A stretch of 64,000 nt of DNA from Haliotis cracherodii (Eukaryota): NCBI RefSeq assembly GCF_022045235.1, contig NW_027266319.1, positions 67,456,001 to 67,520,000 of the forward strand. Direction: 5' to 3'. The translations under genes and the position numbers were made by a program. Position 1 is the first letter of the stretch; each line of letters starts with the position of its first letter. Below, piece by piece: positions 2,827 through 50,400 of this stretch. Below the pieces are notes generated by a model that worked only from the letters and a program-made list of their open reading frames with translations, was not told the DNA's origin and ran no database searches.

Positions 2827-3060
2827 GACCCGTGAAGGTGACTATGCGTGTCGTATGAGGCGACTAACGGGATCGGGTGGTCAGTCTCGTTGACTTGGTT
2901 GATGCAGGTCATCGTATCCCAATTGCGTGGATCGATGCTCATGATATCAGTCACTGGATTTACTGGTCAAGACTCGATTATTTAAAGATCGCCGTCATAT
3001 AGCTAGAATATTGTTATGTGCGGCGTTAAACAAACAAACAAACAAACAAACAAAACAAAC
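2827..3060 (+). mobile_element. Family B short retroposon with internal deletion in the 5' module
   Basis: gacccgtgaag...gtcgtatgaggcgactaacgggatcggg...gcggcgttaaac(aaac)n. Confidence 0.88.
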
Positions 3061-4440: not shown

Positions 4441-4845
4441 GTCTGTTTGTCTGTTTGTTGTTTAACGCCGCACACAGCAATATTCCAGCTATATGACGGC
4501 GGTATGTAAATAATCGAGTCTGGACCAGACAATCCAGTGATTGATAACATGAGCATCGATGCGCGCGATTGGGATACGATGACATGCATCAACCAAGTCT
4601 GCGAGCCTGACCACCCGGTCCCGTTAGTCGTCTTTTACGACAAGCATAGTCACCTATTACAGCAAGTATGGGTTGGTGAAGACCTATTCTACCCCGGAAT
4701 CTTCACGGATCCAATGCTACATCAAACAAAGTCAGCGAGCCTGACCGACCGATCCCGTTAGTCGCCTCTTACGGCAAGCATAGCCACTTTTCACAGCAAA
4801 TATGGGTTGGTGAAGACCTATTCTACGCCGGATCTTCAAGGGTCC
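4441..4845 (-). mobile_element. Family B retroposon with a tandemly duplicated 5' portion
   Basis: Full copy ~4441-4712 plus a second copy of the 5' ~120 bp at ~4727-4845. Confidence 0.88.
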
Positions 4846-6182: not shown

Positions 6183-7485
6183 TACATTATATTGACGTTG
6201 ACCTTGACCTTATACCCAAATAACATGGTATAACTGTCCACGCGAGGGACTGCATGAATGTAAACCACAGGGACAGAATTCTGTTTTACAGAAATACCAC
6301 ACTGAATGTTTTTTTTCTGGTGTTGCCGTTTACAATTGGAACCACACACTCAATAACAAATAGGGCAACTTATGTGACAGTAAATATATATCATATATGC
6401 TACTATTTTGTGAAAACGTCAAATCATGGAAATAATTATCTCTGTCACATTTATCAGGAACATAATTTCTTTCGCCACTCGCAAGGTTCCGATTCATACC
6501 GATGAAATTCCACCGTGATATTGCTGGAATATTGATAAAAGTGCCTTAAAACCATACACACCGATGTTTCAGGATACACTGAATCATGTAAACTATTTTT
6601 GGCTACCTACATACATGTATGTCCTAGACAGGAATGTATTTTGTTTATAACGGTAAACTTGTATTTGTATGTTTCTCAACGTAGAACAGACCAAAGGCCT
6701 GTTCAGTCGCGATATGGTTACATAGTCAAGGTTACACAGATTATCCAGAGACATTGTTTGCTCCTACATATCAAGGTAGCAGTACTTCGACGTGCCGACC
6801 TTGGCTTCTGATTCGTATATACGTCGTGGGAAGGGTATGCATACTTGTTTCTGTATAAATAAGTATTTAAACATAAACACCAAAAAATTCATATTTTTAT
6901 GTTGTGCATATCTCAAGCACCTGCAGGTAGGACAAGACTTCCTCTGAACAAGGTCTCAATTGGCCACGTGCACGGACTCCGAAGAGCCTCTCCATGACCT
7001 GAGGTGCAAATAATCTTAACTGCACTTGCACGTTATCATGACGTAAAAGAATTTAGACATCAAACGTTTCTGATGAGCCGTAACTCGCTGTTCCATAGCT
7101 GCCAGGAATCGCTGTTCCATCGGCACCATCCATATGCAAGTACTGTTCAATGAGGCGTTAACTCTCCACTTGTAGCATTGCAAATCTGTGATAATCGTAC
7201 AGGTGATATATAGAAACAGCAAATGGTTCATCTTTATTATCGGCTTCATCAGTTTCCGCGACTGGAATCACGGACAGAATAGCTCCCCAGTTTCAACCTA
7301 GGGCCCCAACGGCGTGGGACGATGGTCATGCTATCAACCACTGGTTTACCATCCCAAAATGATAATTTACAGACCTCCGCCAACTCACTTAAATCCATTA
7401 AGAGTATATCTATGTAGTTTATATTTTCCTGTCGTTATCCATGTGTTCACTGTACGCGACGTGACAATACGTCGAAGCTGACTGG

Positions 7486-7761
7486 TCCCGTGGAGATCCA
7501 GGGTAGAATAGGTCTTCAGCAACCCATGCTTGCCGTAAAAGGCGACTATGCTTGTCGCAAGAGGCGACTAACGGGATCGGGTGGTCAGGCTCGCTGACTT
7601 GGTTGATGCATGTCATCGTATCCCAATTGCGCGGATCGATGCTCATGGTGTCAAATCACTGGATTGTCTGGTCAAGACTCGATTATTTACAGACCGCCGT
7701 CATATAGCTGGAATATTGCTGTGTGCGGCGTTAAACAACAAACAAACAAACAAACAAACAA
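7486..7761 (+). mobile_element. Family B retroposon, full length
   Basis: Complete 5' module with two hairpin units, body, shared tail and (aaac)n. Confidence 0.92.
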
Positions 7762-8079
7762 ATCGAAGCTGACTGTGTAGTTTCCAACATCAGAGATGAT
7801 ATATCGGTCTGACAAAAATTATACATCACCGACCTCCTGGACGTCTCTACCGGGGTTTTCCAGTTGTAGAATATACCGTTACACTTCTGTTCTCTACTCG
7901 TCTTTATCTCATGCCAGCTGGTCTGGTCCTAGATCAACATCCACCAGACAAAATATCACAGACCGGGCAGACATTAATATCAATATAATATAAATTGTCC
8001 ATGCAAGAGAATAAACAGTCTAGCTATCCCTGGAAAAAAATTCCGATTGGCGTAAAGGGCAAACAGCTGTGAAAATAAT

Positions 8080-15683: not shown

Positions 15684-15858
15684 GGGGCGGTCGGGTAGCC
15701 TAGTGGTTAAAGCGTTCGATCGTCACGCCGAAGACTCGGGTTCGATTCCCGACATGGCTACAATGTGTGAAGCCCATTTCTGGTGTCCCCCGCCGTGATA
15801 TTGCTGGAATATTGCTAAAAGCGGCGTAAAACCATACTCACTCACTCACTCACTCACT
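15684..15858 (+). mobile_element. Family A SINE, full length
   Basis: A/B boxes, shared tail, (ctca)n; short flanking repeat tacatg. Confidence 0.92.
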
Positions 15859-28582: not shown

Positions 28583-28812
28583 TTGTTTGTTTGTTTGTTT
28601 GTTGTTTAATGCCGCACTCATCAATGTTCAGGCTGTTAAATAATCGAGTCCAGACAATACAGTGATTGACATCATGAGCATCGATCCACGCAATTGGGAT
28701 ACGATGACATGCATCAACCACGTCAGCGAGCCTGTCCACCCGATCCCGTTAGTCGTCTTTTACGACAAGCATGGGTTGCCGAAGACCAGTTCTAACCCGG
28801 ATCTTCTCGGGT
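28583..28812 (-). mobile_element. Family B retroposon with a single-hairpin 5' module
   Basis: Reverse complement acccgagaagatccgggttagaactggtcttcggcaacccatgcttgtcgtaaaagacgactaacgggatc; (aaac)n tail. Confidence 0.9.
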
Positions 28813-29112
28813 TGTTTTTACCTGTGTCATGTCTTGACGTCTTTATAATCTTAATAATATCGTAACAGGTTACACTGTGTATTGAGATCATACTATTCCA
28901 AGATATACAACGTATATTGTACACTTAAGGTGTGTTAACAGACGAATACGTTGATTTACGAGGCTTAAGTCGTCCTTGACACGAAGCGAGCAGTATCGGT
29001 TTTCTGAAATACCGGCGACAGCGAAGGAATCAATGGAATACGACTTCAAATCAAACATAGATGTATGATAAGCGTTGTGTATTACAGGGAAAGATATGTT
29101 ATAACAGCTACA

Positions 29113-31324: not shown

Positions 31325-32104
31325 TTTTGTTTGTTTGTTTGTTGTTTAACGCCGCACTCAGCAGTATTCCAGTCTGTAAATAATCGAGTCTGGACCAGAC
31401 AATCCAGTGATTGCTATCATGACAATTAATCGCCGTAATTTGTTGGTAGTTTGGTTGGTTGGTTGGTTGGTTTGATGTTTAACGCCGCACTCAGCAGTAT
31501 TCCAGCCATATGACGGCGGTCTGTAAATAATTGAATCTGGACCAGACAATCCAGTGATTGATATCATGAGCATCGATCCACGCAATTGAGATCCATGACA
31601 TGCATCAACCAAGTCAGCGAGCCTGACTACCCGATCCCGTTAGTCGCCTCTTACGACAAGCATAGTCGCCTCTTACAACAAGCATTGTCGCCTCTTACGA
31701 CAAGCACAGTCGCCTCTTACGACAAGCATAGTCGCCTCTTACGACAAGCACAGTCGCCTCTTACGACAAGCATAGTCGCCTCTTACAACAAGCATTGTCG
31801 CCTCTTACGACAAGCACAATCGCCTCTTACGACAAGCATAGTCGCCTCTTACGGCAAGCATAGTCGCCTCTTACGACAAGCATACAAGCATAGTCGCCTC
31901 TTACGACAAGAATAGTCGCCTCCTACGACAAGCATAGTCGCCTCTTACGACAGGCATTGTCGCCTCTTACGGCAAGCATAGTCGCCTCTTACGACAAGAA
32001 TAGTCGCCTCCTACGACAAGCATAGTCGCCTCTTACGACAAGCACAGTCGCCTCTTACGACAAGCACAGTCGCCTCTATGCTTGTAAGAGGCGACTAACG
32101 GGAT
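31325..32104 (-). mobile_element. Compound family B locus: duplicated tail, full body, about 20 copies of the 22-bp unit, short terminal inversion
   Basis: Tails at ~31325-31420 and ~31440-31640; (gcatagtcgcctcttacgacaa)n at 31641-32076; + strand tatgcttgtaagaggcgactaacgggat at 32077-32104. Confidence 0.92.
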
Positions 32105-34524: not shown

Positions 34525-34930
34525 ATGACCTGTATCACTTCGGGCTTTCCTCCAACATCAAGTTGACACGCCGTGATATAACTGGAATACTGTTCCAAGC
34601 GACGTTCAACTTCACTCACTCACTCACAGAACACTGCACAAGGGAAGATAGTGCAATCATTTCTTATGTGCAGGTTGGTTGTTTAACGCCGCACTCAGCA
34701 ATATTTCAGCCATATGACGGTGGTCTGTAAATAATCGAGTCTGCACCAGACAAGCCAGTTATTGACATCATGAGCATTGATCAACGAAATTGGGTTCGAT
34801 GACATGCTTTAACGAAGTCAGCGAGCCTGACAACTTGATCCCGTTAGTCGCCTCTTACAACAAGCATAGTCACCTTTTACAGCAAGCATGGGTTGCTGAA
34901 GACCTATTCTATCCCGGATCTTCACGAGTC
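34525..34930. mobile_element. Family C 3' fragment (+, ~34525-34627) facing a full family B copy (-, ~34672-34930)
   Basis: gacctgtatcacttcgggctttcctcc...cactcac, then reverse-strand family B. Confidence 0.85.
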
Positions 34931-40820: not shown

Positions 40821-41090
40821 GACCCGTGAAGATCCGGGTTAGAATAGGTCTTCAGCAACCCATGCTTGCCGTAAAAGGCGATTATGCTTGTCGTAAGAGG
40901 CGACTAACGGGTTTGGGTAGTCAGGCTCGCTGACTTGGTTGATGCATGCCATCGATCCCAATTGCGTCGATCGATGCTCAGGATATTCAATCACTGGATT
41001 GTCCTGTTCAGACTCGATTATTTACAAACCACCGTCATATCGCTGGAATATTGCAGAGTGAGTGAGTGAGTGAGTGAGTGAGTGAGTGGG
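40821..41090 (+). mobile_element. Family B retroposon with a complete 5' module, ending in (gagt)n
   Basis: gacccgtgaagatccgggttagaataggtcttcagcaacccatgctt... Confidence 0.92.
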
Positions 41091-41303: not shown

Positions 41304-41577
41304 GGGACACGGGTGGCCCAGTCATCTAAGGCGCCGCAATTCGCTGTGCAGAGTTGCGTCCCTTGGGCACGCCAGAAACCTATGATTGTGGGTTGGAATC
41401 CCGGTTCGCCCCAATTATGTTTCTAAGTTTGTCAGCACCATACCCGTGCTCGTGGGTTTCACCGAAGTGGTAAACGTCTTAGACCTGCATCACTTCGGGC
41501 TTTCCTCCCACATTAAGCTGACACGCCGCGATATAACTGGAATACTGTTAAAAGCGGCGTTAAACCCGATTCAGTCA
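41304..41577 (+). mobile_element. Family C tRNA-derived SINE (V-SINE/RUDI-like), full length
   Basis: tRNA-Leu/Ser-like head gtggcccagtcatctaaggcg...ggttggaatcccgg; tttgtcag and ggctttcctccc core; shared tail; 16-bp flanking repeat ctcactgcactaacca (41288-41303, 41578-41593). Confidence 0.88.
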
Positions 41578-41959
41578 CTCACTGCACTAACCAAAGTACC
41601 ACAAGTACAGCGTAAAAGTTCGAGTGTTATGAGGGTGAATGTCATCAGGGCCACATGTCATTGAATTGACCATTTTGTTTGTCCTTTGACTAATATACGC
41701 ATGTTGCATGTTTATTTGTTTTACTGTTAATACCAAACTACAAATCATAATTCAATAGTTTCATTTGCCAAACAAGGTACGTTAATGACAAATCTTAGAG
41801 TATCATTTACAATCTTGACGAGCAGAATTGTGAAAACTTTAGACAGCAATGTCAAAGAGGATACACGCAGTAGGCGAATCTCCAATAGTTAATAAATCGA
41901 ATTGTTATAATTCCTGCCTATTTTCGTGTTGAAATATTCCATCACATTGTAATTCAAGC

Positions 41960-47354: not shown

Positions 47355-47620
47355 GACCCGTGGATATCAGGGGTGGAATAGGTCTTCCGGTACCCACGCT
47401 TGCTGTAAAAGGCGACCATACATGTCGTAAGAGGCAACTAAAGGGATCAGGTGGTCAGGCTCGCTGTCTTTGTTGATGCATATCATCGATCCCAATTGCG
47501 TGGATTAATGCTCAGGATATCAATCACTGGATTGTCTGGTCCAGACTCGGTTATTTACAGACCGCCGTCATATAGCTGGAATAGTGCGGCGTTAAACAAC
47601 GAAAAAAGAAAAGAAAACAA
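47355..47620 (+). mobile_element. Family B retroposon, diverged full-length copy
   Basis: gacccgtggatatcaggggtggaataggtcttccgg...gcggcgttaaacaac. Confidence 0.9.
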
Positions 47621-49955: not shown

Positions 49956-50400
49956 GACCCGTGAAGATCTGGGGTAGAATAGGTCTTCAGCAACCCATGC
50001 TTGCCGTAAAAGGCGACTATGCTTGTGGTAAGAGGCGACTAATGGGATCGGGTGGTCAGGATCGCGGACTTGGATGATGCATGTCATCGATCTCAATTGT
50101 CTGGTTTGATGCTCATGATATCAATCACTGGATTGTCTGGTCCAGACTCGATTATTTACAGACCACAAAGTGGGCGCTACTTTCATTCAATGTTGTTTTA
50201 CGCCGCCTCAAGCTTTACGACGGCTGTGAATAATCGAGTCTGGACCAGGCAATCCAGTGATTGACATTGTGAGCAACTACCCATGCTGAAGGGTACGATG
50301 ACACGCAATGACCCATGTCACCGAGGCTGACCAGGCCACGCCGGGTCGCCGTTTACGACCAGTATAGGCTGGTGACTTATACTAATCCGGAATCCCCGAG
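49956..50400. mobile_element. Family B copy (+, 49956-50165) tail-to-tail with an older family B copy (-, ~50190-50400)
   Basis: Sequence matches on both strands. Confidence 0.85.

Follow-up and report, generated by a model that had tools for sequence, protein, structure and literature searches.

A predicted double-pseudoknot RNA module at the fixed 5′ end of an abalone SINE, in LINEs and in viral contigs: a candidate exoribonuclease block

How SINEs without a tRNA-type head are transcribed and obtain exact 5′ ends is a question for which a 2016 survey asked for experiments (Matetovici et al. 2016, PMC4758252). A repeat at position 40,821 of a 64,000-nt stretch of the Haliotis cracherodii genome (the window) raises it again, and here a defined 75-nt fold makes it testable. 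The repeat belongs to family B, a ~265-nt retroposon with TSDs whose 5′ end, constant to about 1 nt, sits 1–2 nt ahead of the first helix of its head (hereafter the module). A sequence-only reading of the window had described this head as a four-way-junction, kissing-loop RNA and a candidate ribozyme or 5′-processing RNA. We asked what the head folds into, where else it occurs, and which function would account for both.

Family B copies and their ends

In the window, 22 stretches match a covariance model of the module at E ≤ 0.1 (9 of the 22 at ≥38 bits), which bears out the earlier count of more than 15 copies or fragments; across the 1.18-Gb genome a first look returned 6855 family B candidates, of which 40 were scored. 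Eight full-length heads in the window have a common start (4844−, 4711−, 7485+, 28813−, 34930−, 40821+, 47355+ and 49956+; Table 1), and the internally deleted copy at 2827+ shares it, so the ends are fixed rather than scattered. The sequence-only reading had tied the start to the word gacccgt. The position holds and the word does not: exact GACCCGT opens only 4 of these 9 copies, and 30 copies from an older, single-P4 subfamily differ at the first base (G in 12, A in 9, C in 5), with A as the second base in 27. Among the top 30 genome copies, 25 have an exact flanking repeat of 6–15 nt, whose end in 14 cases lies at an offset of 0 or +1 from the first base, and most carry a (CAAA/CAAC)n tail; because these copies were chosen by full-length similarity, with a double-P4 query, the sample overstates the share of complete copies. 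Within the window an exact TSD was found for only 1 of the 8 copies tested.

No tRNA or Rfam family overlaps family B in scans of the window and of individual loci. ARAGORN found nothing over the window, the single tRNA from the Rfam scan lies outside family B (at 15689), and the one whole copy tested for Pol III boxes (L002) lacks an A box and shows a single loose B-box word. The head is therefore not derived from a tRNA, 5S RNA or snRNA and lacks the A+B box pair, as the sequence-only reading had it. Separately, the window holds tRNA-headed SINE-like repeats at 41305–41590 and 15689–15760, the first of which has a 3′ tail in common with family B.

With a LINE 5′-UTR-related head, no tRNA or 5S head, TSDs and a tandem-repeat tail, family B is likely a member of the LP-SINE class, described from abalone, periwinkle and oysters (Matetovici et al. 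2016, PMC4758252). It resembles the LP-SINEs of that survey (Hdi_LP/Hmi_LP, Lsa_2, Sgl_LP) in the missing tRNA head, the TSDs, the tandem-repeat tail and a similar length (255 bp for Hmi_LP), with Hdi_LP and Hmi_LP compared by description and length only. The published LP head, of ~70 bp, is LINE-derived, common to Nimb-17_LMi, I-3_DR and RTE-9_CPB, and was proposed as a promoter (“LINE promoter”), with the analogy to Pr77 pointed out (PMC4758252). As a sequence, then, the head was already known as the LP domain, a case that the sequence-only reading had itself listed as counting against it. The survey’s section on the head treats it as a promoter only, with no structure, viral occurrence or upstream HDV.

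Table 1. Positions of the family B head, its predicted elements and other copies in the window.
Feature	Position	Strand	Basis or remark
Family B copy, probable LP-SINE type	40821..41060	+	without the usual last ~20 nt; runs into (GAGT)n
PK1 5′ strand CCCG, predicted partner 40835–40838	40823..40826	+	p = 0.015–0.017, 15 lineages
P2 5′ strand, partner 40847–40853	40828..40834	+	two-sided changes at 7/7 pairs (A1); swap p < 0.0001
PK1 3′ strand CGGG, within P2 loop (predicted)	40835..40838	+	alignment and partner swap
A-rich linker ending AGAATA; predicted loop 3 of H-type pseudoknot	40839..40846	+	AGAA invariant, 20 rows of A1
P2 3′ strand	40847..40853	+	two-sided changes in A1
P3 hairpin	40854..40866	+	two-sided changes at 4/4 pairs
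Predicted PK2 5′ strand (P3 loop)	40857..40862	+	p = 0.0007–0.004
Extra 22-nt unit, duplicated P3′+P4	40862..40883	+	typical of best-conserved family B copies
P4 hairpin GTCG-TAARAGG-CGAC, near-invariant	40890..40904	+	alignment
TAA junction, then predicted 3′ strand of PK2 (CGGGTT)	40905..40913	+	partner swap, alignment
3′ segment akin to tails of Nimb/I-like LINEs and tRNA-headed SINE	41025..41060	+	local alignments
Full-length copy, 13-bp TSD, (CAAA)n tail	7485..7775	+	
Single-P4 copy, older subfamily form of module	28600..28813	−	
Full-length copy	34670..34930	−	
Full-length copy	47355..47610	+	
Intact-headed copy whose 3′ part is lost at an inverted fragment	49956..50166	+	
Two tandem heads, starts 4844 and 4711	4450..4844	−	
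Copy missing P2–P3 by internal deletion, 5′ start unchanged	2827..3050	+	
Minisatellite, ~20 units of 22-nt P3′+P4, within family B copy	31641..32077	−	

Pairing statistics and predicted fold

Pairing was assessed in an alignment of 20 hand-picked representatives (A1, plain MAFFT) and in a partner-swap test with fixed windows over 15 lineages, which are partly dependent; a 19-row version of the test agrees. In A1 every pair of P2 (7 of 7) and of P3 (4 of 4) has two-sided changes, PK1 is paired in 75% with one two-sided change, and P4 hardly varies. Partner swapping over the 15 lineages gave p < 0.0001 for P2, p = 0.0007 (Watson–Crick) or 0.004 (with GU) for PK2, and p = 0.017 or 0.015, respectively, for PK1. 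At the level of sequence comparison, pairing is thus shown to be sequence-specific in P2, P3 and PK2, and more weakly in PK1. With the seven viruses alone only P2 is significant (PK1 p = 0.06–0.29, PK2 p = 0.08–0.19), and two of the viral lineages have a PK2 of just 2 bp. One PK2 pair, counted in 80 metagenome copies, is T-A in 60, A-T in 15, T-G in 3 and something else in 2, with no T-T or A-A; the T-A/A-T flip is probably one event.

The predicted fold opens with a 5′ H-type pseudoknot (PK1 of 3–5 bp, a linker of ~1 nt, P2 of ~7 bp and an A-rich loop) and continues with P3, P4, a UAA junction and a second pseudoknot, PK2, in which the P3 loop would pair with the strand after CUAA. All helices named by the sequence-only reading can be drawn where it placed them, and P2, P3 and P4 hold across distant homologues, with compensation in P2 and P3. 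The P1 helix that was to close a four-way junction lacks lineage-specific pairing across the 15 lineages (p = 0.45 Watson–Crick, 0.39 with GU), and so does the proposed P2–P3 kiss (p = 0.69 and 0.36), for which the P2 loop would need the GGGT found in only 18 of 56 parsed family B genome copies (of 60). P1 does form in a pseudoknot-free energy fold of family B alone, and for that reason may compete there for the 5′ strand of PK1. Energy folding, which leaves out pseudoknots, gave z-scores of −0.35 to −2.85 and is weak evidence.

The AGAATA loop, said earlier to be well kept, is exact in 34 of the 56 parsed family B copies; the shorter AGAA(C/T) is kept in 54 of them, and AGAA is invariant in the 20 rows of A1. 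The invariance of AGAAUA and P4 is partly selected, because both served as search words. Viral scans with the P4 stem freed found no true member with another stem, and those with the loop freed found one true member, a one-base loop variant.

The module of family B is itself partly eroded. At 40821 a 22-nt duplication of P3′+P4 (40862–40905) lies between the P3 and P4 of the sequence-only reading; it is present in all 30 top genome copies, which were retrieved with a double-P4 query, and absent from the aligned outside homologues. The P4 duplication displaces PK2 in the best-conserved family B copies, yet their 5′ end is still fixed, and in most copies only 3 in-register PK2 pairs are left. 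Beyond abalone, the scallop MESC SINE alignment in supplement 4 of the 2016 survey (PMC4758252) has the same motif, beginning at the C-tract; its “Nimb-17 homology” rows share the AAGAA loop, P4 and CTAA with the module, and P2, PK1 and PK2 are possible there by eye.

The module in LINEs, metagenomes and viral contigs

That the head is common to LINE 5′ ends, which the sequence-only reading had suggested, is confirmed by the LINEs of this genome, by the published scallop alignment and by one LINE (L259) whose 5′ end and ORF1 lie within a symbiont scaffold. With the ORF1 of this contaminating LINE as query we retrieved 30 loci in the abalone genome; in 28 of the 29 that could be oriented the module lies about 400–600 nt before ORF1, and the remaining one is truncated below the module. 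The carrier LINEs, of ~6.1 kb, encode APE, RT and RNase H (L363–L367 have an ORF1 with a CCHC knuckle and an ORF2 with these three domains), and from this domain content we infer that they are Nimb/I-type. The family B head is 79% identical to the LINE module over 61 nt. By local alignment the LINE tail resembles the SINE tail but differs from it, so the direct LINE partner of family B was not found.

Carrier LINEs begin 60 nt upstream of the module, at a minimal HDV-like sequence (P1 GGCACTC/GAGTGCT, P2 AGAGC/GCTCT, P3 ACC/GGT, L3 TCCTCGT, GG and CTAA), and in 4 of 5 full LINEs a 12–13-bp TSD abuts its G1. Three Rfam HDV-type models match only the part upstream of the module (best E = 0.0018, below the gathering score), and the LINEs of this genome thus have what appears from its motifs to be a canonical-looking HDV-like ribozyme directly upstream of the module. 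Because the full HDV-like motif stands immediately upstream, we treat motif and module as separate units. Queries with the module start found the upstream HDV kept in 30 of 30 LINE copies (one judged by eye), and in the intact-CUAAA subfamily it is kept in all 29 parsed copies (of 30); none of the 59 parsed copies starts at the module. Between LINE subfamilies P2 is compensated, and the CTAA junction varies (CCAA, CCGA or CAAA).

Two observations concern the origin of the family B start. Its GACTC variant equals the first bases of the LINE HDV head at 12 of 13 positions (40821–40834 vs L340:862–878), and in LINE copy L334 a deletion fuses the HDV start to the module loop; judged by sequence, the family B start may derive from a fusion of this kind. 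As a counterpoint, the module of the DNA virus described below has a similar P2.

In metagenomes the scan yielded at least 122 stretches, among which several families of SINE-like repeats and two 5′ ends resembling RTE were recognised by eye. Conservation falls 1 nt ahead of the C-tract in three repeat families (n = 23, 8 and 9). The C-tract is usually preceded by a purine, and the base at the presumed cut site is not conserved across lineages. One repeat family (L089, L092, L129, L146, L161 and similar) has kept AGAATA, P3, P4 and a compensated PK2 and has lost the 5′ strands of PK1 and P2.

Viral contigs were searched with an exact 18-mer and in six looser scans (13, 30, 12, 66, 117 and 26 stretches), which were sifted by eye, by a stem test or by covariance model. 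The exact scan gave 5 matches, all with AGAATA and with different P2 upstream, and no SINE or LINE body was evident behind the module in these. The full module is present in 8 viral contigs from 7 lineages, six RNA-virus-like and one DNA virus. Upstream of it, five lineages encode Pfam RNA-virus proteins (Peptidase_A21, Capsid-VNN, RdRP_3, RdRP_4 and Viral_coat); contig L031 has an ORF without a Pfam match that is RdRp-like by eye only, and a tandem second copy of the module, cut by the contig end. In the six RNA-virus-like lineages the module starts about 5–200 nt past the last long ORF and ends 17–122 nt from the contig end, and in the 212-kb AT-rich DNA virus contig it lies between two same-strand genes.

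Other candidate members were rejected. Of 63 matches in prokaryote genomes, 58 are chance, and the other five (L219, L229, L230, L257 and L259) are true-looking modules in microsatellite- or LINE-like DNA, which we infer to be eukaryotic contamination, likely from the host. Virophage-like loci L425, L448 and L498 (17–23 bits) lie antisense inside a capsid-like ORF, one of them without P2, and two 26-nt matches in a phage collection are chance.

Comparison with known RNAs and candidate functions

The module matches no Rfam family, and by position and architecture it is xrRNA-like while belonging to no defined xrRNA or ribozyme family. Flavivirus xrRNAs lie in the 3′ UTR and form a double pseudoknot in which the 5′ end is anchored, and plant-virus xrRNAs stop Xrn1 “precisely at the base of P1” (PMC12397905). 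Compared with the RNAs covered in that source, the module is likewise compact and has a tandem copy, and a double pseudoknot with a paired-in 5′ end is predicted for it, PK1 and PK2 being significant over the 15 lineages and not in the viruses alone; it lies in 3′ UTRs or intergenic regions, and the element ends at the base of its first helix. Unlike viral xrRNAs, it has a strongly conserved P4 and occurs in cellular retroelements. Its order, an H-type PK1 followed by P3, P4 and PK2 with no three-way junction, also differs from xrRNA classes 1–3: it fits neither a three-way junction with double pseudoknot nor a stem-loop with apical pseudoknot.

The reading we favour is that the ~75-nt module blocks 5′-to-3′ exoribonucleases (Xrn1/Xrn2) and thereby sets and protects the 5′ end of the element, a proposal to which we give somewhat less than an even chance. 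More tentative still is its extension, that the module represents a new structural xrRNA class traded among LINEs, SINEs, RNA viruses and a large DNA virus, which would trim read-through RNA to unit length. An exonuclease block is favoured because it is the sole reading that covers the SINE, LINE and virus settings. Host promoters would transcribe family B copies by read-through. Once such an RNA is decapped or cleaved, an exonuclease would digest its host leader up to PK1 and halt there, so that the RNA begins at the module, and a Nimb/I-type reverse transcriptase would then recognise the tail and insert a copy with a TSD. For LINEs, cleavage by the HDV-like ribozyme would produce a 5′-OH end, as is established for HDV-type cleavage, and such ends are not taken directly by Xrn1; the ribozyme may be kept for this reason, with the module as a backstop. 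In viruses, the module would yield a short 3′ subgenomic RNA.

Elements without an HDV-like head, namely family B, the three metagenome families and the scallop MESC SINEs, start at the base of the first helix. By analogy, this edge start may parallel the Xrn1 halt at the base of P1 in plant-virus xrRNAs, and the place of the module in viral 3′ regions, once in tandem, may parallel flavivirus xrRNAs (both as described in PMC12397905). The sequence-specific pairing of P2, PK2 and PK1 over the 15 lineages and the upstream HDV kept by the LINE copies also speak for a block. Several points stand against an exonuclease block: the absence of LINE copies starting at the module (0 of 59 parsed) leaves no direct trace of trimming in LINEs; PK1 and PK2 fall short of significance in viruses alone; PK2 is displaced in the abundant double-P4 form of family B, where P1 may also compete for the 5′ strand; the near-invariant P4 and AGAAUA exceed mechanical need, which suggests a ligand or catalysis; and the usual purine before the C-tract resembles a transcription start.

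The conserved loop would also suit a translation element, one that binds an initiation factor or the 40S subunit and allows cap-independent translation of uncapped LINE or viral RNAs, like a 3′ CITE or IRES. In SINEs it would place the RNA at ribosomes, where nascent ORF2p can be captured, in the manner of Alu, which uses SRP9/14 for this. The loop sequence is invariant across hosts. The module lies in the 3′ UTR of contigs with tombus-like and toti-like Pfam matches, viruses that are uncapped, and in LINEs it sits behind the HDV-like motif, where the RNA would lack a cap. Like 3′ CITEs such as BTE and PTE, the module is found past the last ORF, here in tombus-like contigs, and has a conserved loop; unlike them, it is also at retroelement 5′ ends and accompanies animal-type repeats. 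HDV-headed retroelements are thought, in the account of PMC6765202, to translate via IRES-like 5′ structures. We nevertheless consider a translation role unlikely: it leaves the edge starts of four SINE-like families and of the scallop SINE unexplained, 3′ CITEs are described in PMC12397905 as plant-virus-specific, Rfam returned no CITE or IRES match, and the conserved parts have no fixed complementarity of ≥7 nt to 18S rRNA. As a post hoc lead, P4 in its AAAAGG variant can be aligned with one insertion to the 3′ end of the 18S rRNA of this genome (L398), a match that 0.3% of random 11-mers also reach; it may be rRNA mimicry.

The sequence-only reading had held that the head matches neither HDV, hammerhead nor twister, and the scans agree. 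In Rfam scans of 15 loci or stretches the module matched no hammerhead, twister, pistol, hatchet, twister-sister or hairpin ribozyme; the hammerhead core CUGANGA..GAAA is absent from 16 modules on either strand, and the HDV L3 word UYCNCGY occurs in one of the 16, out of place. We accordingly rejected the module as an HDV, hammerhead, twister, pistol or hairpin ribozyme, the cores being absent; apparent likenesses to pistol (the A-rich linker) and twister (UAA/GAGG) do not fit in helix order. With the HDV-like ribozymes of R2, RTE and L1Tc/ingi Pr77 the module shares a 5′-terminal place, a hairpin, CUAA and a pseudoknot-closing strand, whereas it has no P3/L3 (UCCUCG), no P1.1 and another helix order. 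We also set aside the RTE/Ceph domain of Kojima 2018 as the module; it is probably another domain, because the supplement of that paper has none of three module words.

It is improbable that the module is instead a new small self-cleaving class, cutting at its own 5′ edge and freeing the element from host transcripts. It takes the 5′-terminal place that HDV holds in other LINEs, and compact, pseudoknotted RNAs with many invariant unpaired bases have the traits of ribozyme candidates (PMC10085705). UTRs of linear RNA viruses do contain ribozymes, although those described in PMC13725137 mostly precede ORFs, and a cut at the viral module would remove the 3′ terminus. An efficient cut would also strip the upstream HDV, which LINEs keep, the intact-CUAAA subfamily included. 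The presumed cut site has no conserved base across lineages, and the modules show no hammerhead core and one chance HDV-L3 word.

The same kept HDV argues against an internal DNA promoter with its start at +1, possibly with a second role like that of trypanosome Pr77, since an edge start would drop the HDV from LINE copies, which was not seen. The fixed start, usually at a purine, the conserved primary sequence and the published proposal (PMC4758252) speak for a promoter. Against it, compensatory pairing shows selection on the RNA, and the occurrence of the module in RNA-virus contigs excludes a purely DNA-level role there. We rate the promoter as the least probable of the functions considered here. 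The broad idea of a 5′-processing RNA, put forward from the letters of the window, survives, with an exonuclease block as its likeliest form, while its self-cleavage and promoter versions are weakened by the kept upstream HDV and the RNA-virus occurrence.

Finally, the module might be a binding site for the element’s polymerase, RT or a packaging protein, or a mobile RNA akin to s2m, with family B possibly a decaying relic; this has a small probability, no greater than that of self-cleavage. s2m is carried by astro-, calici-, picorna- and coronaviruses. Its patchy spread over unrelated viruses, and into insect genomes (bioRxiv 2020.06.29.177030), recalls the scatter of the module over unrelated viruses and retroelements, each being a short conserved RNA found in viral 3′ UTRs and animal genomes. 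Altered loops, a doubled P4 and a minisatellite made from P4 are, moreover, all tolerated in family B. Unlike s2m, the module is predicted to be pseudoknotted and is tied to retroelement 5′ ends, with no sequence or Rfam similarity between the two; one RT and several unrelated RdRps would need the same RNA, and a binding site offers no mechanism for fixed 5′ ends.

Literature searches with the motif letters in full text returned no relevant title among those listed, and those with LP-SINE terms returned only Matetovici et al. 2016, with no follow-up found. Among the open-access titles listed for ribozymes or xrRNAs with retroelements or viruses, none describes this fold. For its 26 HRIMA motifs, PMC10085705 reports no occurrence in the genomes of known organisms. 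The SINE class is known; within the reach of these searches, the fold of its head, its viral presence and its pairing with an HDV-like motif are undescribed. The xrRNAs described so far come from viruses, and PMC12397905 sets their discovery in new settings as a goal. If an exonuclease block is correct, retroposons would have, next to internal promoters and ribozymes, a third route to a precise 5′ end, and the module would be the first xrRNA that animal genomes encode in thousands of copies. The compensated module in LINEs, SINEs and unrelated viruses points to exchange of an RNA device between retroelements and viruses, and the natural tandem of HDV and module may help to stabilise uncapped RNAs.

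The HDV-headed LINEs show further features of their own. A young Nimb/I-like group (e.g. L340:862–918; L333–L397, L569–L618) has a 58-nt minimal HDV-like head with almost no P4; its top copies are 97–100% alike, and a first look for the head gave 1199 candidates. The list of six LINE clades with ribozymes in Kojima 2018 does not include Nimb. Many LINE copies (L364:2–1537 and others) are nested in other LINE copies and clustered on few contig arms. Small-RNA reads on the LINE head are nearly all antisense ~30-mers; in run X20, 114 antisense reads of ~30 nt share one start inside the module (L343:928–958) and are piRNA-like. In run X1 the depth over the HDV part is far above that of the rest of the LINE head (L343:860–947), with other sequences joined behind the HDV, a pattern suggesting that a related organism has other HDV-headed repeats in abundance.
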